A stretch of DNA of 64,000 bases from a virus. Within the stretch, counting starts at the first letter, position 1; each line of letters starts with the position of its first letter. The stretch lies in IMG/VR virus record IMGVR_UViG_3300042147_000025, positions 29,121 through 93,120 of that record; one strand, written 5' to 3'. The notes under the pieces are model-generated. The model was not told where the DNA came from and searched no databases. It worked only from the letters and a program-made list of their open reading frames with translations. The translations under genes were made by a program, and so were the position numbers. Below are positions 7,284 to 50,742 of the stretch, piece by piece.

Positions 7284-7622
7284 TTAGTTATTCTGAATTT
7301 GCAAATTATTTTGAATCACTTTTTGATTCAATTTCTTATCACTTTGCAACTCTTTAACCCGAAGCTCCAACACATAAATACGCTGGTCAGTACTAACTTG
7401 ATAATCATCCTGTCTTTCAGAAGTTTTATTAACCCTCTGTTCAAGATAATCTGTATTATTAGCAACCACTTTCATAATGTCCTGCCTTACTAAAGTAAGC
7501 TTCTGTCCATAGTTATTAACGTTTGCGTTATCACTTGAATTAGACATCAAGATTGCTATCAGAATTGTAGACAAAATAAGATAAGCTACAGTTGCTGTTC
7601 GATCCAATACCTTCCAGATCAT
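7284..7622 (-). CDS. membrane-anchored coiled-coil protein, end of lysis cassette
   Basis: N-terminal TM segment, heptad-rich body, GGAGG RBS. Confidence 0.65.
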   Translation of the reverse strand: MIWKVLDRTATVAYLILSTILIAILMSNSSDNANVNNYGQKLTLVRQDIMKVVANNTDYLEQRVNKTSERQDDYQVSTDQRIYVLELRVKELQSDKKLNQKVIQNNLQIQNN

Positions 7623-7634
7623 TGGACCTCCAGA

Positions 7635-7916
7635 TTACTTTCGTTTGTTTATCGATCCAAAATACAGGTCTAAACGAGCAAGCAAATCAGAACGCATCCC
7701 TTCAATGTTAGTTACTAGTCGTTGCTCTGTATCCTTGAGCTGTTGATTACTTACTTTGTCTGTGTAGAGGAATAAAACTCTACTCTCAAGCTCTTTGTTC
7801 TGTGTTCGGATATCTTGGATAACTAGCATACCGAGAGCCATCACTACAGAGAGAAGTCCTATAGCAAATTTTTCCCAAATAGCTGTAATGCGGGTGTTAG
7901 CTGAGTCATTTGGCAT
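7635..7916 (-). CDS. single-TM protein in lysis cassette (possible holin/antiholin-like)
   Basis: Start MPNDSAN; TM FAIGLLSVVMALGMLVI followed by coiled coil. Confidence 0.6.
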   Translation of the reverse strand: MPNDSANTRITAIWEKFAIGLLSVVMALGMLVIQDIRTQNKELESRVLFLYTDKVSNQQLKDTEQRLVTNIEGMRSDLLARLDLYFGSINKRK

Positions 7917-8196
7917 TCTTGTACAGCTCCATCTGAGACTTCTTGTTTTTACGGATAGCATCCATTTGCTTTTCCCACAAACCAATACACCCTACATTAC
8001 GATTCTGTGCAAGAGCTAGATCAATCAAACTCTCACCAGCAGGTTTTGCACGGCACGGGCTCACAAGAAGTGCATCACTTGGGTAGACATTGGTTATCAT
8101 TGGGGTAGGTGGTGCAATAACCTTGTTTGAGCAGGCTGACAATGTTATCAGAAAGCAACCCATCATCAGGCAAGACATTAGGTTTAAGATTTTCAT
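7906..8196 (-). CDS. o-spanin (Rz1-like lipoprotein)
   Basis: Lipobox LSAC, Pro-rich linker, overlaps the i-spanin in another frame. Confidence 0.8.
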   Translation of the reverse strand: MKILNLMSCLMMGCFLITLSACSNKVIAPPTPMITNVYPSDALLVSPCRAKPAGESLIDLALAQNRNVGCIGLWEKQMDAIRKNKKSQMELYKNAK

Positions 8197-8518: not shown

Positions 8519-8771
8519 TCTCTTCATCCTCTTTCTTATCAAGAGTGGGTTGGTGTATTAGCCTACCAATTAGCCCCAACAATCCAAACAAAATAGCTAA
8601 ACTAATTACAAGCTTAAAGGCAAAATATACGTTTATAACACCAAGCACGGACAAGCCTGTTACAGATACGGCTTGCAGAATGTTAGCTAAACTAAAAACT
8701 ACAGAATAACTTTTCCAAAGCTTCTTCCAATTACCCACTAGAGATACTTTAGAAATGTTCTTCATTTTCAT
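8508..8771 (-). CDS. holin with possible Met-Lys-Met dual start
   Basis: 87 aa, two or more hydrophobic segments, charged C-terminal tail, between endolysin and spanins. Confidence 0.7.
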   Translation of the reverse strand: MKMKNISKVSLVGNWKKLWKSYSVVFSLANILQAVSVTGLSVLGVINVYFAFKLVISLAILFGLLGLIGRLIHQPTLDKKEDEENVQ

Positions 8772-18920: not shown

Positions 18921-19698
18921 TTTCCCTTGCCTTTCTTAGTGGGTCTGTGTCTTTAGGGGAATCACCAGTACCTACATCTTGTGGTGTACTATCTTGCTTA
19001 CCTTTAGAGGCTTTACTTGAAGCTTTCTTTTTAAGAGAGTCTTGTACATCTTTTGGGATAGTGGTCTTCTTTAAGAAAGCAAAAGTCACCTGTTCAAAAG
19101 TAATATCACAATACAAACCATATCCAGTGTTTGGGTCTTCCTTAAAAGTAATCTTAGTCATTACAAGATTGTTGATTACTTTACGAAGCAGTGTGCTGTC
19201 ATACTCAAACAAACGAACAAGTTGAATGCTGGGATCAAAGTTACCAGTCTTATCGTTGAAGACAACACCAGCAGTAAGATCAATCAGAGCTTGTCTAATT
19301 TGTTCTAGAAGGTCAGCACGTCTGCTATCAACCACTACTTCCGGAGTACTATCAGATAGGAACTGGCCGATACTGTCTGGAATAAACTTCTTCAGGACAC
19401 TTTGGTCTGTAGAGTTCACACTGACAGCATTAGGGGCTTGATTACTGTTGTATGGAGAGTTACCATCCAAGTCTTGGATTAGGTAAGTTCCAGTGGAAAT
19501 GTCTACACCCGTAATTACAGCACCAATTGTAAAGATTGGATTCGCAGAAATATAGTGGTCAGTCACCAGTCCACCGGACGCAATTGGATGTTTTGTAACT
19601 TGCCCAGAATAATTTTGTGTATAAGAAGTTACCGCCGAGAGGTAAATAAAACCCCCGTCTTGGACTGATGAATCACCCCACTCTATCGCTAATGACAT
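18913..19698 (-). CDS. tail tube initiator / Dit-like protein
   Basis: VTKHPIASG..VTDH, ITFEQV; follows tape measure. Confidence 0.75.
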   Translation of the reverse strand: MSLAIEWGDSSVQDGGFIYLSAVTSYTQNYSGQVTKHPIASGGLVTDHYISANPIFTIGAVITGVDISTGTYLIQDLDGNSPYNSNQAPNAVSVNSTDQSVLKKFIPDSIGQFLSDSTPEVVVDSRRADLLEQIRQALIDLTAGVVFNDKTGNFDPSIQLVRLFEYDSTLLRKVINNLVMTKITFKEDPNTGYGLYCDITFEQVTFAFLKKTTIPKDVQDSLKKKASSKASKGKQDSTPQDVGTGDSPKDTDPLRKARENG

Positions 19699-20695
19699 AC
19701 TCAGTCCCTTTCATTAGACTACCATTAAATTTTTCATAAATTTCAACAATATCTTCTATGTTGTGTGGATAAGTAGTTTCACTATAGCCATCAGGCAACA
19801 ACTGCCTATCCACTACTCCGCAAGTTAATGTATTAATACACTCACGTTCTGCTGCCTTACAATCTGAAATATTCGGAAATTTATAAACTTTGTGTAATAC
19901 AACATCTAACCCAGAAACCCTTTGCTGCTGGGAAACACGGATTAAAGAATTATTAGAAATTCCAAACTTAATGGCAATGATGTTATCGTTATCTTTGATT
20001 AAGTTGATGTAGGCTTCTGTTTGTCTTTGCTTTGCACAACCACAAGACCTATTCCCCTTCATCAGAGTAGCAGAACGAGCCTCTACATTCTGAAGACAGT
20101 CAGGGCAAAACACTTTCCAGTATGGTCTATGACCTTTAAAATCTTCTGTAGTACTTCTTGCAAAAGTAGTTCCTTCAGAAAAAGATCCCGTTGCAAAGAA
20201 GTCTCTGACAAACTCTTCATCAGGTTTAGATGCTCTCTTACCTACTGCCTCAAAGCGGCAACCGGGACAACCAACATTTCTATTTATGAAATTATTGATA
20301 ATTCCACTTGACCAAATACCATGAGTTTTGCACTCAAGTGATAATTTAGTTTTTCTGTCTGTGAATTCACCAGCCCAGCCATGAAATACATATCCGAGTT
20401 CACCTGCTTTTCTTTGACAAACTATCTTATAATATCTTTCATCTCTTCGGGCAGAAACTGAACATCCACACGGTACTTGCCCCAGTATCAAACTAGACTT
20501 GATTGACCTAAACAGTCCATCTCCATATAATTCTGGGTCTTTTTCACAAATACTACACTTTACAACGTACATTTTGGATGTAGCGCTTTTACCAGACCAG
20601 CCAATAACTTCAAGTTGGTTTTCCTTGCCAAATCTGGTGCCAACAAATTCGTCAGTTTCAATTTTATCAAAATCACTGTAGTACAATTTAAACAC
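19673..20695 (-). CDS. Zn-ribbon plus GIY-YIG-like homing endonuclease (start may be TTG 20686)
   Basis: Cys repeats, AYINL..IKFGIS..RV, AERE, DGYSET; promoter TTGATT-17-TACAAT at 20716-20744. Confidence 0.7.
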   Translation of the reverse strand: MFKLYYSDFDKIETDEFVGTRFGKENQLEVIGWSGKSATSKMYVVKCSICEKDPELYGDGLFRSIKSSLILGQVPCGCSVSARRDERYYKIVCQRKAGELGYVFHGWAGEFTDRKTKLSLECKTHGIWSSGIINNFINRNVGCPGCRFEAVGKRASKPDEEFVRDFFATGSFSEGTTFARSTTEDFKGHRPYWKVFCPDCLQNVEARSATLMKGNRSCGCAKQRQTEAYINLIKDNDNIIAIKFGISNNSLIRVSQQQRVSGLDVVLHKVYKFPNISDCKAAERECINTLTCGVVDRQLLPDGYSETTYPHNIEDIVEIYEKFNGSLMKGTEYVISDRVG

Positions 20696-37035: not shown

Positions 37036-37383
37036 TTATTCTACTTGACCACTTGCTTTCAAATATTGCATCACGAGCAAATTACGATCCCTGCCTGAAA
37101 TCCCATACTTCTTCTTAACAGTAGCCTTCAACGTATCCCAATCCATATCATCAAGTTGCTCTTTTGTAAACAACTCTTGGACGACTTGAAACCGGAAACC
37201 GGGTTTATCTTCAAGCATCTCAGCCGTGGACAATGTAAACCAAGCAGAGTGTGGATAGTTAAGTCGTGGTACTTTACCTTCTTGAAGAACAGCACCTTTG
37301 CCAGCAATCTCAATACAGTTCTGCATAAAGCTATAACCAATGCTATCAGCACCAGTTACATACACTAAATATTCGTTTGTCAT
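37036..37383 (-). CDS. hypothetical protein
   Basis: AGGAGAG RBS, 115 aa. Confidence 0.7.
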   Translation of the reverse strand: MTNEYLVYVTGADSIGYSFMQNCIEIAGKGAVLQEGKVPRLNYPHSAWFTLSTAEMLEDKPGFRFQVVQELFTKEQLDDMDWDTLKATVKKKYGISGRDRNLLVMQYLKASGQVE

Positions 37384-37481
37384 TTAAATTCTCTCCTGTT
37401 GTTTGTTTCAAGAGAGACATAATCTCACAAACATAAGCTGGAAGTCAAGCTTATTACAAATATATTTACCTGTCTTAACAA

Positions 37482-38630: not shown

Positions 38631-39041
38631 TTACTCATGATCGTCTTGGTCAGGATCGACATAGACTAGTGACAGACGTGGTTTCAATTCAGCCTTGATC
38701 TGTTCAGGGGATTGCTCTTCCTCTTCAGTATCACGCTTTCCTTCAGCACGAGCTTTGAAGTTTGTAATCTCATCGCTGCTAGCTGCTTTTTCAACGCTGA
38801 CAATGGAATTGATAATCCACTTTGCGCTTGCGACAGACTCAGAGTTTACATTTTCATTCTTAAGACTCTTATCAATCAAAGCTAGAGCAATATCTTCGCG
38901 TTCACGAAGCTTGTCAGCCAGTTCACGCAGTTTACTCTTTTTGATTCGAACCTTACTGTTTCCCGAAGTGTTTCTGTTTGAACGTGGCCCATCAAACCTA
39001 GTATCTGGGCTAGGATTCGGGTTTGTAATTTTCTTAGCCAT
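38631..39041 (-). CDS. probable terminase small subunit
   Basis: Basic N-terminus with TRFDG...N..GN, helical core; upstream of terL. Confidence 0.55.
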   Translation of the reverse strand: MAKKITNPNPSPDTRFDGPRSNRNTSGNSKVRIKKSKLRELADKLREREDIALALIDKSLKNENVNSESVASAKWIINSIVSVEKAASSDEITNFKARAEGKRDTEEEEQSPEQIKAELKPRLSLVYVDPDQDDHE

Positions 39042-39053
39042 AAATGTTACCTA

Positions 39054-41750
39054 TTAAGATACAGAAGGCATAACGCGGAAGTTTGTACTCGTTCCGGCGA
39101 CACCTTCCGCCACATTGACCCAGCCCATCGATCCACCTGCTGCAATTGTATTATTCCAAATCTTGTGACCTCTGGAATAATAAAAACCATCGGTTGGAAT
39201 TGCTGTTGCATAGTGTGGGGTGACAGAGACAAGCATCCACTCTGCTGTTGTACCTAGTTGTGGGATGATCCTTTCGAATATCAAAGCACCACCGCTAGGG
39301 CAGGTGAGTTCAGGGACACCAGATGCACGTAGACTAATATTACCATTAGATCGTACAGTTACAGCACCGATTGCAAACAGTGTACGATGTTGTCCGGGGT
39401 TTGCCCAACCATGAAGATTTGAAATACGGATGGTCCTGTCAGCATTAGGGGACACATAGCAAGATGGATGGCCCTGCATATCAACGTTACCAGAAGCATC
39501 AGTAACAACAATTTTGTGTTGTCTGTTGTTCTTAAACAGTGTCATTCCGGTAGTTTGCTTACTGTTCTGTCCCACGTATTCCCAAGACTGAACTTGGTCA
39601 AGGCCTACACTACTAGCGGCAACCATGTTGTCAACAGTACCGAGCATAAACCCACCGGGGCCAACCTGTGTGCGGCTGCTGACACCTTCCCTGAAGATAC
39701 CCCCATCACCAACACCACCTTGAATGAAAGTAGTTGCTACAGTTTGGGATGCGCTAACTTGGTAAGTGCCAGACTTTCCAGTTGAACCTGTCAACTGTTG
39801 GACTATGGTGGTTCCAGCAGTAACCCCAGTACCCGTTAATGACATACCCGCAGCGAACCTGCCAAGCATTGACACATCGTTCTCAATCGTAAGGGTAGTT
39901 CCTGCAATGGAGCCATTACCTCGACCCGCACCAACCGTACCATTGCCAGCATTAGCATGTCTGTTAGCTTGGAAGAATTGTTGGGCGCCAGTTTGAATGT
40001 CAAAACAGATACCTACAGATTCAAACCAAGTTTCCATTACGCTATTGTTACTGCAAGCACCAAGCTCCTTCCAACCCAATCGGGTTTTTTCACAAGCAAA
40101 TTGCCCCATAGCCATTACACCAGTGGGGCAACGTGCAGCCTGACCAACACCGGCAATATCAGAAGTACTTTCACCATGACCACTTGCATTGTCTGCAACT
40201 TCCGAGGGGGTTGGGTCAAATGTCAACAGTACACCGATATCTGATATATCATCTGGTGCTGTGCTCATACCGCCTGTGTAACCGTTCTCAAGTTCAATTT
40301 GACCGTGTTGGCCAGTGAACATGTAGCCAATACTGCCAATAGCTCCACGGGCACCTACTTGACAATCCTGAAACTTAACAAACTGGTTTGGGAGAAGTGA
40401 ATGAGCATCGGTATATCCGGCTCTTGACCACACACATCTGTTGAAGTTAATGATTCTGACATTGAAGAATGTCGTGTGCCACAACCCACCTTGAGTGTAC
40501 CCAGCATCCCATTTTGCACGGGCATACAATCCCCACTGTGTTGGGTTGACAGGTGCCACGTTAAAGTCTGCTGTTGATGCTCCGCTTATAGTGAGGTTAG
40601 ACCACCCGCATTCTGCAACAACGCCAGAGTCAATTTCCACCATCCCGTAAGTAAATCCGGGATCTGCTACAGGAAGAGCAACAAACCCACCATTCCTCAC
40701 GCCGGGGCCGTCAACTGGAACTCTGGAGCGGATGGTTAGCTTAGTTACGGGGGAGAAGCCAGACCCAAGTCTAACCTTACCCCCACCCTTACTGGACGCA
40801 TATAGAGATGCTTTTTCACAAGCCAGAGTGTCATCTGTCACGCCGTCAGCCAGTCTACCAAACTCCTCCATCCAAATTTCACCGGAAGTAATTCTTTGGA
40901 ACCTGCCTGTTGGAACACCCACAACAGCGAAAGTATACCCACCATTATCCGGTTCTGTTGAAGCAGAGTCCCATATGAAATCACCACCGCCGCGTGGGCC
41001 AAGATAAGGTACTCTTGTGGACCACCCAGCATGATAGGATGCGACTTTATAAGTAAGGCCAGTCTTTCTTGGTAGCGTCAATAGGTCTGCAACAGAATCA
41101 ACAGACACCACAGCACTGCCAACATTCAGTGCTGCACCATCGGCAGCAAGGTCTGCAATGCTTACTTTTGTACTTAGAAGACCTTCTGTGTAAACAGCAG
41201 AAGCCTGTGCATCATTGGCGGAGTCTAAGGAGTCTTGAGCAGAAGCAGCGCTTTCAGCAGCTTTAGTAGTCGCTGTAACTGCACTTGATGCTGAAGACAC
41301 AGCCGAAGTTTGACTTGCTGTGGCACTATTGGCAGAAGCTGTTGCAGAGTTAGCCGAATTCGTAGCACTTACCGCAGCTTGGCTTGCAGACGCAGCAGCA
41401 GCATTCTTACTAGCCAATGCACCAGCAGCATCAGCAGCCACTTGAGCTGCCAAGCCATCACTATGAGCTGTCTGATCAAGCATCAACAATTCATTAATTG
41501 TTGTCTGCGTTGTATCATCTGTAATCTCAATATTACCAATGTTAGCATAGGATCTATATTCTAAGGAGAATACACTGACATGATACCAACCATTTGGAAC
41601 ATCAATTTCATATTCACCATCTTCATCTGTCTTAAAGTCTTTTGTGACAAACATAAGAACTTGTTCAGAGGTGTTGTTAGCTGTAATCCGTACAGATGAG
41701 TTTTTATATGGTTCGCCTGTAGGGGTGAGGAGGGTGCCTGAAAGAATCAT
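39054..41750 (-). CDS. tailspike / depolymerase (lambda Stf-like N-terminus plus beta-helix)
   Basis: ILSGTL...G.P...DEDGEY Stf-type head, Ala/Ser stalk, [11 protein letters not shown] pectate-lyase-like start. Confidence 0.85.
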
Positions 41751-41801
41751 ATTGTCCCTACTGGAGAGTGTACTGGAATATTGTTATTTTTACAGAAAGA
41801 T

Positions 41802-42035
41802 TTTCTTAGTTATACTCGCAGGCTAGGCCGTGCAATATTCATAATGAAGGAATATAACTAAGAAATGACCCTGTGCTAAGCATGTGTTGTGAGGAGAGGC
41901 ACGTAACACGCTATCAAGGTCAGAAGAACTTCTAAGGAGAGGGATAGAAGTTCTTTAAGTGCTGATATAGAGGAGAGAAGACATCAGCGGAGGAAACATA
42001 TCTTTTATGTAGAATTTAATTCTTGTCAGATATGT
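41802..42035 (-). ncRNA. candidate multi-hairpin RNA with CUCUCCU loops
   Basis: Five stems; three loops carry the same 7-mer (AGGAGAG on + at 41892, 41935, 41971). Confidence 0.55.
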
Positions 42036-42044
42036 GGGTGAAAC

Positions 42045-42126
42045 TGGAGCGGTTATTAGGGAATCCAACCCTCGACCTTTCTACCGTGAAGCGCTTCACA
42101 AATAGTTAAGACAGCATGGTAACCGC
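42045..42126 (-). ncRNA. tRNA-like element / pseudo-tRNA with Gly-like acceptor
   Basis: GCGGTTA/TAACCGC stem, U73-CCA, degenerate T arm; no canonical D arm or anticodon loop. Confidence 0.6.
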
Positions 42127-42195
42127 ATAATAAAACACTGACCTTTTGCACATTAACATCCACCGTTGATGGATAAGTGTGGTCAGTTTGTTACT

Positions 42196-42271
42196 TGGTG
42201 CCGTCACTAAGATTCGAACTCAGGACATCTTGCTTACAAGGCAAGCGCTCTACCGCTGGAGCTATAACGGC
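42196..42271 (-). tRNA. tRNA-Thr(UGU)
   Basis: Full cloverleaf, anticodon loop CT-TGT-AA, encoded CCA. Confidence 0.95.
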
Positions 42272-42276
42272 GAAAT

Positions 42277-42353
42277 TGGCTGGATATCGTGGGCTCGAAC
42301 CACGGACATTCGGATTAACAGTCCGATGCAACTACCAACTGTGCTAATATCCA
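42277..42353 (-). tRNA. tRNA-Asn(GUU)
   Basis: Cloverleaf, CT-GTT-AA, G73, encoded CCA. Confidence 0.93.
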
Positions 42354-42360
42354 AGAATTA

Positions 42361-42665
42361 ATGATGTCTTTCCATCAGTCACATACCAAGTATGACACCG
42401 AGTCTGGATTTAAAGTGCGAGTCGGCATTTAGCACACACTTCGTAGGCGCTACTAGACTTGTATGGCTCTCGTAGTCCACCCTTGTTAATCTAGCATCCC
42501 AGTTGAATGGGCTGAGCCTACTCGTCAACGTATTACGCCGCGTATGAACGTAATATCCGTATTCCCTTGTTCTCACCTTACACCGACAAACATATGGAAA
42601 TCGATGAGGTTGTTCCATATAACCAAGGAAATTCTTTTTCCTGCACTTTCCAGTGCAATTCACAG
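42361..42665 (-). ncRNA. candidate ~300-nt multi-branched ncRNA upstream of the tRNAs
   Basis: Dense nested stems, GGAA and GAAA-containing loops, starts just after a promoter. Confidence 0.55.
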
Positions 42666-42670
42666 TACCT

Positions 42671-42698
42671 ATTATACAGACTTATTTACAAAAGTCAA
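42671..42698 (-). promoter_or_regulatory. sigma70 promoter for the RNA locus
   Basis: TTGACT-16 nt-TATAAT. Confidence 0.65.
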
Positions 42699-42728
42699 AC
42701 TAAATCTTTCATTTTGTTATAAAAGATT

Positions 42729-42905
42729 TTAACTATCTGAATCAGGCATCACTTTCTTGAAGACAGTTCCGTAATGGCTAACACCCTCATGTTGATACTC
42801 CCACCGAAAGCAACCATCAATAAACTCTTCAGCACTTTCTTCAAATAAACATACACAATCTTTTTCTTCGGCCCCGCAGTCAGGGCAATAGTTTTCGTTG
42901 CCCAT
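42729..42905 (-). CDS. small Cys-containing hypothetical protein (58 aa)
   Basis: AAGGA RBS; MGNENYCPDCG...CVC. Confidence 0.55.
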   Translation of the reverse strand: MGNENYCPDCGAEEKDCVCLFEESAEEFIDGCFRWEYQHEGVSHYGTVFKKVMPDSDS

Positions 42906-42966
42906 TCTTGGGTTCCTTTGTTATTTATATTGAGTTCGTATTATACTCACACTTACTTATTAAAAG

Positions 42967-43176
42967 TCAAGCTTTTGGAATATTTATTTTAAACCAGCAA
43001 ACTCCGTAGTAGTCTACACACAAGAATTCAAGATCTTTTGTTTCAAAACTATTAATCCACTTGGCGAGTTCAGTATAAAAAGCAACTGAATTATATTCCC
43101 CGTATTGAGGCTGCATCTCACGTAACCAGCTAGGAATTTCAACCATCATTTTATTTCCAACGGTAAGCTCTTTCAT
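42967..43176 (-). CDS. hypothetical protein
   Basis: ATGA-coupled to the upstream gene. Confidence 0.6.
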   Translation of the reverse strand: MKELTVGNKMMVEIPSWLREMQPQYGEYNSVAFYTELAKWINSFETKDLEFLCVDYYGVCWFKINIPKA

Positions 43177-43526
43177 TTCTTGTCCGCTTTGACTATTCGA
43201 TTGATAAAATCTTCTAAACCTTTTGCGCGATAAGTCTTGCTGTTAGACAGCAGCCATTTATTAGACTTAGTGAAGTATGTAAATTTATCAATACCCCATA
43301 CACCCATCCTCTTTAAAATAGACTCGCCTAAACCATTATCTACAAGAATTTTTGCACAATGATAATCCATAAGGCTCATTTGCATATAAGCATTAAAGTG
43401 ATTGCCTGAACGAGACCCTTGCTCCTTAGCTTCTTTGATATGCTGTTGCACACCATCAAAACCTAGCTCTACAATTTTATTTGCTGTTCTCACTATAACG
43501 CCACTGGATTTTACATCTGTAATCAT
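43173..43526 (-). CDS. hypothetical protein
   Basis: ATGA-coupled to the polymerase-like gene. Confidence 0.65.
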   Translation of the reverse strand: MITDVKSSGVIVRTANKIVELGFDGVQQHIKEAKEQGSRSGNHFNAYMQMSLMDYHCAKILVDNGLGESILKRMGVWGIDKFTYFTKSNKWLLSNSKTYRAKGLEDFINRIVKADKK

Positions 43527-44770
43527 ACGCTCAATTTCTCCTCAATCGCAATACCATCTTCTTTCCAATTCAAACTGATTGGAACTAGATAATCTACACC
43601 AAACCTTTTACGAAAGCAATCACCCATAGTCTTTGATAGCAAGTCAGCATTCTTAGTCTGAACCAAAAATGAGTCGTGTACTGGCAAGCATGGGATATTC
43701 TTTTCAATCATCACCTCTAGAATATCATTAGCCAAATGACTATCAGCATTCTGTAAGATACGCCCCATGCTATCTGGGCAACAGAAGAAATCACCAAACT
43801 GTGGGTATTTATCATAGATAAGCAACATCACAGCTTTAGCGCCACCAAGGGAATACTTCTTTTTGTCTTCATCCTTAAGAAGATTAATCTCTTTACGAAT
43901 AGCACCCTCTGCATCGTCATCGTTATAGCAGTTGAACATGATATTTACTGCAAGCTTTACAATACGACGATCCACTGTGTTTGTTTCATCTTCCAAAATA
44001 CCTGAGTACACATCCAGTGGTAGGTATTCAACATCAATGTCTTTCAAAGCTGCTGCTACACGAAAATGCAGATTACAGAAGTCAATCTCACAAACCTCTT
44101 GGCCTTCAATCTTAATATCAAGCCGTGCGTCAGTGTCACGATTCTTAATTGCCAGTACATCAGCCTTGTAGAACCTGCCACCATAGGCAAACGACTCATT
44201 AAAGATGCGGCAGTAGAAGTTTGTTAAGGTCTTACCACTACCATCCTCAATACGGAATGATTCATTCATGTGGTTGAGCTTACGAACAACCTCTTCCATC
44301 TTCTTGATGTCTTGCGTATTACGATAAGGGATTGAATTCTTTTCTTCATCACGCAATTCAATAACCTTCACTGTGTCTTCGTATGCTTTCATAGTTTCCT
44401 CAATCAATTCTTCCATGTTCCAGACTTCAATGAATTTCTGGGTTGGAGTGATGTAGCTGACTTCTCTCTTCTCTTTAATCTTATGTGGCTTACCCTTAAC
44501 ATTAACCACATATCCATCGTGTACTAGATACTCAATACAACGAATAACTTTACGAGATGTAATATCTTTCTTACTGCTTGTCTTTGTTCCTCCTGTGTCT
44601 CTGCTGTACACAAGCTTACATTGTTTCTTAAGGCAAGCAATGAGGTTAGTGACAACCACGCCTAGTGTAGTGATATCCTTATACCCGTACACCCTAATAA
44701 CATTACTTACTTCTCTACTAACTTTAATATCATATGTTAGTAGCTTAGTATTCAAGATTACCTCTCCCAT
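43523..44770 (-). CDS. minimal family-A / T7-RNAP-like polymerase (TV-Pol-like)
   Basis: YGGRFY, motif A EIDF, motif B RRIVKLAVNIMFN, GRILQNADS, motif C PVHDSFLV. Confidence 0.7.
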   Translation of the reverse strand: MGEVILNTKLLTYDIKVSREVSNVIRVYGYKDITTLGVVVTNLIACLKKQCKLVYSRDTGGTKTSSKKDITSRKVIRCIEYLVHDGYVVNVKGKPHKIKEKREVSYITPTQKFIEVWNMEELIEETMKAYEDTVKVIELRDEEKNSIPYRNTQDIKKMEEVVRKLNHMNESFRIEDGSGKTLTNFYCRIFNESFAYGGRFYKADVLAIKNRDTDARLDIKIEGQEVCEIDFCNLHFRVAAALKDIDVEYLPLDVYSGILEDETNTVDRRIVKLAVNIMFNCYNDDDAEGAIRKEINLLKDEDKKKYSLGGAKAVMLLIYDKYPQFGDFFCCPDSMGRILQNADSHLANDILEVMIEKNIPCLPVHDSFLVQTKNADLLSKTMGDCFRKRFGVDYLVPISLNWKEDGIAIEEKLSV

Positions 44771-50712: not shown

Positions 50713-50742
50713 AGACTCCACTAACACAAAGGAGAGAAATTT

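Follow-up and report, generated by a model that had tools for sequence, protein, structure and literature searches.

A conserved hairpin-array RNA with repeated C/U-rich loops beside the tRNA genes of uncultured Ounavirinae-like myophages

Locus and fold of the RNA

The minus strand of positions 41802 to 42045 of a 64,000-nucleotide stretch of viral DNA encodes one copy of a conserved structured RNA of about 210 to 290 nt. This stretch (the window, to which positions refer unless stated otherwise) comprises bases 29121-93120 of the 93,120-bp IMG/VR virus record IMGVR_UViG_3300042147_000025, which has direct terminal repeats and whose best DNA match among sequencing runs is a rhizosphere metagenome. 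Matches to the PHROG database identify a myovirus, with large terminase, protease, major head, sheath, tape measure, baseplate and fibre genes downstream on the - strand, and the nearest cultured relatives of its terminase are Ounavirinae-like Pseudomonas phages (35-43% identity). The interval between the start codon of a tail-fibre gene (41750, -) and the gene for tRNA-Thr holds no credible open reading frame (ORF).

A preliminary description of this DNA had reported five consecutive hairpins between 41802 and 42035. They are seen in the minimum-free-energy (MFE) fold of the - strand, where they fill this interval from H1 (42035-41996) to H5 (41865-41802). The interval is real, but the true unit is 10 nt longer, reaching 42045 and including a conserved leader. 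The parts of the module are the following:

41802-42045, - strand: whole conserved RNA module, 244 nt (leader and helices H1 to H5), from the MFE fold, a covariance model (CM) and covariation
42036-42045, - strand: leader AGUUUCACCC, 10 nt, whose first A also completes the 3' end (...GCUCCA) of the tRNA-like element upstream
41996-42035, - strand: H1, a variable outer stem topped by a conserved apical region, AAGAAUUAAAUUCUA, which folds as a small inner hairpin
41989-41995, - strand: H1-H2 linker UUCCUCC (GGAGG at 41989 on the + strand)
41961-41988, - strand: H2, stem GCUG.../...CAGC, loop CUUCUCUCCUCU at 41969-41980
41924-41955, - strand: H3, perfect 11-bp stem, loop UCCCUCUCCU at 41935-41944
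41866-41922, - strand: H4, long interrupted stem, loop CCUCUCCU at 41892-41899
41802-41865, - strand: H5, three-way junction with outer stem UUUCUUA.../...UAAGAAA and two inner hairpins, without a C/U loop

The AGGAGAG heptamers that had been pointed out on the + strand at 41892, 41935 and 41971 are all present, and their complements, CUCUCCU, occupy exactly the loops of H4, H3 and H2 in the - strand fold. The GGAGG at 41989 is also there and falls in the linker between H1 and H2. The stem described as a perfect repeat of 10 bp is indeed perfect, but its length is 11 bp; this inverted repeat, AAGAACTTCTA/TAGAAGTTCTT (41924-41934 and 41945-41955), is the stem of H3. AGGAGAG occurs 12 times in the window, against 7.2 copies expected; even so, by a rough estimate for the whole window, the probability that three copies fall by chance within 80 nt of one strand is ~2e-5, which excludes a chance origin of the trio.

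Inside 41751-42195, no intrinsic terminator (GC-rich stem followed by a U-tract) was found on the - strand. The module forms no cloverleaf and obtains no score with ARAGORN or the Rfam tRNA model, which call only tRNA-Thr and tRNA-Asn. The Rfam search that had been suggested as a check (Rfam 15, E<=10, positions 41000-43500) returned the two tRNAs and three unrelated chance matches (E 1.6-6.3) only, and matched the module to no family.

Transcribed strand

Folding energies support transcription from the - strand, which is the strand of the tRNAs and the tail-fibre gene and the one favored in the preliminary description. The fold of the 445-nt interval, compared with shuffled sequences, gives z = -4.76 on this strand and z = -1.43 on the + strand. 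The tRNA strand likewise gives the better fold in 14 of 15 homologues (summed MFE, -1046 versus -962 kcal/mol), with 88 G-U pairs over the 15 against 45 on the opposite strand. At three alignment positions U-G or G-U is the commonest pair, where an antisense RNA would have A-C mismatches. Every copy of the module is also co-directional with the tRNAs, the late genes and p136, a conserved gene for a 136-aa protein that lies downstream.

If the + strand were the one expressed, its AGGAGAG loops would display GGA and could serve as a sponge for CsrA/RsmA, as had been considered earlier. Every antisense loop would hold an A(N)GGA-like sequence, and a sigma-70-like match (TTTACA-16-TATACT) is found on that strand at 41789-41816. 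This match is, however, not conserved in the close relative L002 or in other relatives, such sites occur at about the chance number (15 found versus 13.3 expected), and the neighbouring genes and tRNAs are all on the other strand. Together with the fold energies, the G-U pairs and the common direction of all copies, this makes the sponge on the + strand very unlikely.

Conservation and covariation

Homologues were sought by three routes: with a neighbouring 415-aa protein as the query, with the pattern AGTTTCACCC...CAGCA..TTAA, scanned for in contigs of viruses and metagenomes, and with an alignment of p136. The pattern scans produced mostly coding false positives, which were weeded out by counts of the C/U motif and by inspection; the metagenome homologues obtained by pattern are among the matches listed. 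A covariance model, R1, was built from the window sequence and its MFE structure alone. It scores 310.7 bits at the module of the window and finds full-length matches in 33 further loci of related myophage contigs of ~85-93 kb, with E values from 2e-38 to 4e-4. There is one match per locus, every one on the strand of p136, and one match at a locus edge is truncated at its 5' end. When whole records were searched, a single copy, always on the gene strand, was found in each of five complete genomes (G000, G002, G003, G004 and G008); the copies in G001 and G007 were found by the locus search and not by the whole-record search.

The first 15 distinct homologues fold independently into the same five top-level hairpins. 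Among the 33 distinct aligned sequences, 93.9% of the pair cells are canonical, versus 64.6% for shuffled sequences (0/500) and 38-44% for slid partners. The covariance alignment proposed earlier for the equivalent interval of relatives thus bears out the structure, with double (compensatory) changes in 71 of the 76 pairs, an unusually strong covariation support. Every helix contributes: 8/8 and 4/5 pairs in helices 1 and 2 (H1), 8/8 in helix 3 (H2), 11/11 in helix 4 (H3), 17/18 in helices 5 to 7 (H4) and 23/26 in helices 8 to 10 (H5).

The sequences themselves are highly diverged, with a median pairwise identity between modules of 40%. The stems exist in 20 to 28 versions among the 33 sequences (28 distinct versions for H3), the H4 stem differs in length among relatives, and the H1-H2 linker is C/U-rich in many relatives but not in all. 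A plain MAFFT alignment analyzed with RNAalifold recovers H5 with 19 pairs, 11 of them compensatory, and yields no consensus pairs in the 5' half because the stems there are too diverged for sequence alignment, a problem that the CM route solved.

It could be argued that the interval is not a functional unit and holds chance hairpins, terminators or decayed tRNA genes, given that the tRNA region is visibly rearranged between relatives and that a degenerate tRNA-like element adjoins the module. The module has, however, neither U-tracts nor GC-rich terminator stems nor a tRNA-model score, and it is conserved over its full length. The CM matches and the covariation refute this explanation in practice.

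The RNA is confined to one clade of Ounavirinae-like myophages, all uncultured, from soil and water. A blastn search of 41600-42400 against GenBank phages matched the tRNA part only, and in phiPMW, a cultured terminase relative, the equivalent interval lacks the module. Another cultured relative, Pseudomonas phage vB_PsaM_M1, has one C/U-loop hairpin and a C/U linker, with a non-significant fold (z = -0.39) and no match to R1. This intergenic hairpin (2340-2400 of locus L158) has the loop UUGUUCUCCU, is followed by single-stranded AUCCUCCU and lies ~2 kb upstream of homing-endonuclease and terminase genes; it may be a reduced analogue of the module.

Loop motif

The loops of H2, H3 and H4 in the 33 sequences provide 99 loops for comparison. 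CUCC is found in 95 of them, UCUCCU in 84 and the complete CUCUCCU in 70, while CCUCC and CCUCCU are found in 22 and 17, respectively. Neither GGA nor CCUCCUCCC, the loop motif of the cuckoo RNAs discussed below, occurs in any (0/99 for each). The loops are almost pure C/U (C 579, U 500, A 48, G 36) and are unpaired in every fold; in the first 15 homologues all three are pure C/U and contain CUCC, with differing stems. Conservation of the loop heptamer in relatives, on which the preliminary description had made its proposal depend, is therefore found while the stems change. All module sequences pooled are also rich in C and poor in G (1841 versus 1167).

Junction with the tRNA genes

Upstream of the module, the - strand carries the following features:

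42671-42698, - strand: sigma-70-like promoter TTGACT-16-TATAAT (11/12), candidate start of the transcript of the tRNAs and the RNA, by consensus match only
42277-42353, - strand: tRNA-Asn(GUU), called by ARAGORN and Rfam
42196-42271, - strand: tRNA-Thr(UGU), called by ARAGORN and Rfam
42195-42129, - strand: hairpin between tRNA-Thr and the tRNA-like element
42046-42126, - strand: tRNA-like element that ends in ...UCC before the first A of the module (overlapping UCCA)

The tRNA-like element folds with a perfect 7-bp acceptor stem (GCGGUUA/UAACCGC) and a T-arm-like hairpin (loop UUGGAUU), without a normal D or anticodon arm, and it is not called by ARAGORN or by the Rfam tRNA model at E<=10. 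It may be a degenerate tRNA. A similar T-arm followed by GCUCCA is present in L002 around 8640-8680.

The junction of tRNA and module recurs among the relatives. In four genomes the first A of the leader is the final A of a tRNA CCA end, belonging to tRNA-Thr (twice), tRNA-Arg and tRNA-Gly, and in a further genome the end of a tRNA-Arg lies 8 nt upstream of the leader. The first six bases of the leader, AGUUUC, are common to 24 of 32 leaders, and 28 of 32 start with R-N-W-U-U. RNase E, which starts the removal of tRNA 3' trailers, prefers R-N|W-U-U. The RNA is probably co-transcribed with the phage tRNA cluster, and from this match we infer that its 5' end most likely arises by 3'-trailer processing of the tRNA at CCAG|UUUCACC. 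Release by tRNA processing, already suggested in the preliminary description, is plausible, given the direct physical continuity of the RNA with the 3' ends of tRNAs.

Almost every genome has its own set of tRNA genes next to the module (Thr, Asn, Arg, Gly, Pro, Ser). The closest relatives, L002 and L003, lack the two tRNA genes of the window, and upstream of the module L002 holds, at 7387-8155, an ORF with HNH-like Cys/His motifs. In the window, ~310 nt separate the promoter-like site from tRNA-Asn (42354-42698, -); the sole ORF of this segment is a 94-aa GTG frame without a family match, its fold is not significant (z = -1.31), and a piece of it (42447-42563) has a match of ~88% to a 12.7-kb wastewater contig.

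Downstream genes

Two genes on the - strand follow the module in the window:

39054-41750, - strand: tail-fibre/tailspike gene, 898 aa, with a PHROG tail-fibre N-terminal domain, inserted between the module and p136
38631-39041, - strand: p136, conserved 136-aa gene, found after the module in every relative

In every case p136 and the terminase genes lie downstream of the module and share its strand, at a variable distance. Among the first 15 loci the gap to p136 is 19-36 nt in nine and 118-293 nt in four, and the tail-fibre gene is absent from it in 13. The gap is ~2.76 kb in the window and in L002 as a result of the tail-fibre insertion and reaches ~3.5 kb elsewhere. This variability shows that the 3' edge of H5 is an insertion point and that the module is not tied to one start codon. 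The first 96 residues of the tail fibre are 100% identical in L002 and L003 (L002 9063-9350), and the tblastn match stops at residue 96; in other relatives this place is taken by different fibre genes or contains no fibre gene. The pattern resembles an exchange of host-range cassettes at the 3' edge of the RNA.

The relatives of p136 are 129-141 aa long, with a basic disordered N-terminus (TRFDG..SNRN..KSKLR) and an acidic tail. An AlphaFold2 model (mean confidence score pLDDT 69.6) places a helical hairpin of very generic fold (residues 37-102) between these two regions. No sequence match to p136 was found in PHROG, Pfam or the Protein Data Bank (PDB), and tblastn against GenBank phages gave nothing; apart from a weak lead to DUF5681, the nearest clusters in the protein atlas are unnamed viral proteins only. 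Possible roles of p136 include that of the small terminase and that of a regulator which binds RNA or DNA.

Predicted pairing of the loops with ribosome-binding sites

The complementarity between the loops and ribosome-binding sites (RBSs) of this phage was evaluated over the 160 ORFs of a crude gene call. GGAG precedes 36% of the ~160 ORF starts, versus a background of 3.8%, and AGGAG precedes 18%. The preliminary description had linked the loops to RBSs that read AGGAGAG, and both sites that it cited exist: one at 50730, 6 nt before the ATG of an ORF of only 31 aa, and one at 37391-37397 (-), 7 nt before the ATG of a 115-aa ORF. These are the only 2 of the ~160 starts with this heptamer, and there is no enrichment. 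With GGAG common and AGGAGAG this rare, the loops are complementary to the general Shine-Dalgarno (SD) core and not to a special class of RBS.

RNAduplex predicts pairing of a loop with the start region at -8 kcal/mol or better for 59 of the 160 ORFs and at -10 kcal/mol or better for 21, and the best predicted sites are extended purine RBSs. The 9-nt complement of the H2 loop, GGAGAGAAG, has 6 copies against 0.6 expected, all on the + strand; one is the antisense of the module itself and three are at RBSs, 2 nt before the ATG of ORFs of 68-97 aa. Copies are found at the following positions, in genome and in window coordinates:

14325, 20365 and 74261 of the complete genome G000, + strand: GGAGAGAAG
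45141, 49308 and 59446 of the window, + strand: GGAGAGAAG

Genes on the opposite strand pair slightly better with the loops than co-directional genes do in four of five genomes, whereas pairing to the 16S tail does not differ between the two groups. This is a weak hint of a bias of loop pairing toward early genes.

The best co-directional predicted partner in this genome, at -14 kcal/mol, is the gene at 37036-37383 (-), which may be considered a candidate target of the loops. This gene, of ~115-127 aa among the relatives, lies directly upstream of the large terminase; its GGAGA(G/A) SD sequence is kept in most relatives, and the protein diverges.

In Bacillus subtilis, pyrimidine 8-mers resembling the anti-SD (aSD) sequence repress through SD pairing even from hundreds of nucleotides away (bioRxiv 10.1101/2025.11.27.690947). 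Action at such distances makes both trans action and long-range cis action of the loops plausible.

Proposed function and alternatives

The heptamer CUCUCCU contains CUCC, CCUC and UCCU, each complementary to an SD tetramer (GGAG, GAGG and AGGA, respectively). From this complementarity we propose, with a probability of roughly one half, that the loops pair with GGAG-type RBSs. In the processed RNA, H1 and H5 would be structural end-pieces, and H2, H3 and H4 would each expose a single-stranded, G-free loop with this core. The three loops would pair multivalently with the purine-rich SD regions of mRNAs, and this pairing may block binding of the 30S subunit, open the mRNAs to decay, or both. The targets of its action in trans would be messages of the host or of the phage, and it may also act in cis on the long late transcript at whose head it stands. 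Less probable, and put forward tentatively, is the fuller proposal that the tRNA-processed RNA is a multivalent decoy of the anti-SD tail that would bind GGAG-type RBSs of the host, of early phage genes or of both, and thereby reprogram translation. By analogy, such a decoy might be viewed as an RNA counterpart of the early shut-off by RegA and RegB of T4, a comparison that we regard as speculative to the same degree. The observation on which the preliminary description was based is confirmed, and its interpretation is partly supported.

Several results weigh against SD pairing by the loops. The conserved core is (C)UCUCCU, whereas the canonical 16S hexamer CCUCCU is found in only 17 of the 99 loops, and a sequence-specific partner, whether a protein or an RNA, would account for such a core no less well than generic SD pairing does. 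The loop-SD duplexes are short (five to seven bp). Across five genomes, the loops of a phage pair no better with its own start regions than foreign loops do, and so nothing indicates specific targets that co-evolve with them. The opposite-strand bias is weak (p = 0.04, 0.12, 0.10, 0.13 and 0.81), and the genomes compared are related to one another and their gene calls are crude. There is no terminator or clear processing site after H5, and the next start codon is only 19-36 nt past H5 in 9 of the first 15 loci, for which reason the module may stay attached as a 5' leader. The alignment behind the pair counts was fitted to the structure of the model itself, a caveat eased by the recovery of H5 from the plain alignment and by the agreement of the 15 independent MFE folds. 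Finally, among the sequencing runs that hold this stretch, none is verifiably RNA; contigs of a relative in four wastewater libraries labelled RNA-Seq/cDNA, which are possibly DNA, span H5 and the tRNAs, which are separated there by 189 nt of diverged sequence.

The lack of a terminator-like site between H5 and the next gene is what would be expected if the module were a cis-acting leader of the late (packaging and structural) operon, with an effect on transcription or mRNA stability. Such a leader might direct processive antitermination, as put of HK022 and nut of lambda do, possibly being read by p136, or it might be a 5' stabilizer of the processed late mRNA, and the C/U loops would contact RNA polymerase, Nus factors or p136 instead of mRNAs. 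The constant position upstream of p136 and the terminase genes suits such a leader and SD pairing equally well, and insertions of 0.1-3.5 kb before p136 are tolerated, as expected of an element that acts on the polymerase or on the transcript 5' end; the disordered, arginine/lysine-rich N-terminus of p136 is loosely like lambda N. However, p136 could equally be the small terminase subunit, no boxA- or boxB-like element was recognised, and nothing connects the C/U loops with the antitermination RNAs that are known. The presence of three loops that are nearly alike points to multivalent binding more than to a single polymerase contact, and the conserved leader at the tRNA CCA suggests cleavage, which would leave a 9-nt single-stranded 5' tail that is a poor 5' protector. 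We consider a cis-acting leader unlikely.

Multivalent binding need not involve mRNAs, and the three C/U loops could instead titrate or recruit a pyrimidine-specific protein, in the manner in which CsrB and RsmZ act on CsrA. Host Rho, which binds YC dinucleotides, ribosomal protein S1, a KH-domain protein and p136 of the phage itself are candidate partners. The layout of several hairpins with variable stems and identical loops is that of known sponge RNAs, the exact heptamer in 70 of the 99 loops is more specific than generic SD complementarity requires, the module is C-rich and G-poor, and no set of mRNA targets was found to co-vary with the loops. The present tests, however, point to no candidate protein. 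Rho and S1 need no fixed heptamer, and no RNA-binding domain is recognisable in p136. We also regard a protein sponge or scaffold as unlikely. If the loops do pair with RBSs, the RNA would be a compact viral competitor of ribosomes at start sites, convergent with the bacterial cuckoo and RsaE RNAs; if their partner is a protein (Rho, S1 or p136) or they act on late transcription in cis, it would be a new phage control element at the early-to-late boundary. In either case the RNA family offers a clean experimental system, since it is present as one copy, its motif is defined and its stems vary naturally.

Comparison with known RNAs

To our knowledge, few phage-encoded regulatory RNAs are known, and no description of a phage RNA with several aSD-like copies was found in the literature searched or in Rfam. 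The most similar architecture is that of the cuckoo RNAs of alphaproteobacteria (CcsR1-4/RSs0680 and ar14/NfeR1), in which 2-4 adjacent hairpins with variable stems carry CCUCCUCCC in each loop (PMC4615179, PMC8034643). Both kinds of RNA have adjacent hairpins, variable compensating stems and a repeated C/U-rich, aSD-like loop motif, and both have a gene for a small protein in the same transcript. The cuckoo RNAs differ in consisting of 2-4 bare hairpins, whereas the three motif hairpins of the module are framed by H1, H5 and a conserved leader, and in being chromosomal with promoters of their own, whereas the module is phage-borne and fused to tRNA 3' ends. The loops here have CUCUCCU in place of the cuckoo motif. 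The absence of that motif, the lack of an Rfam match at E<=10 and the myophage context rule out membership of the cuckoo family, and the module is an analogue of these RNAs, not a member.

Other trans-acting small RNAs, RsaE/RoxS of Firmicutes and 6C RNA of Actinobacteria, also use unpaired C-rich loop motifs to pair with G-rich RBSs. The pairing that we propose would be of the same kind, but these RNAs differ in their motifs (UCCC, C-runs), their length (~60-110 nt), taxa and context, and have no sequence or CM similarity to the module. In CsrB, RsmY, RsmZ and CrcZ, one loop motif is likewise repeated on many variable-stem hairpins for multivalent binding; their partner is a protein and their motif is GGA (A-rich in CrcZ), unlike that of the loops examined here.

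Among phage RNAs, the stable RNAs C and D of T4 (species 1 and 2) are structured and are co-transcribed with, and processed from, the T4 tRNA cluster; we know of no function assigned to them. The module resembles them as a phage RNA that comes from a tRNA cluster, but it has no known sequence or structural similarity to them, and they are not known to carry an array of C/U loops. Like the module, nut of lambda and put of HK022 are structured RNAs that head a long phage operon, and the lambda RNA adjoins the gene for the small basic protein N. They consist of one or two hairpins of other sequence, without repeated C/U loops, and the likeness is positional only.

Other genes of the window

On the - strand upstream of the tRNA genes, 43523-44770 encodes the 415-aa protein used as a query above. 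It belongs to PHROG 4756 and gave no PDB sequence match, and its relatives in Vibrio, Aeromonas and Rheinheimera phages have 23-36% identity. Within the tail-gene block, an ORF of the HNH/endonuclease family (PHROG 681) at 19673-20695 (-) adjoins the tape-measure gene.

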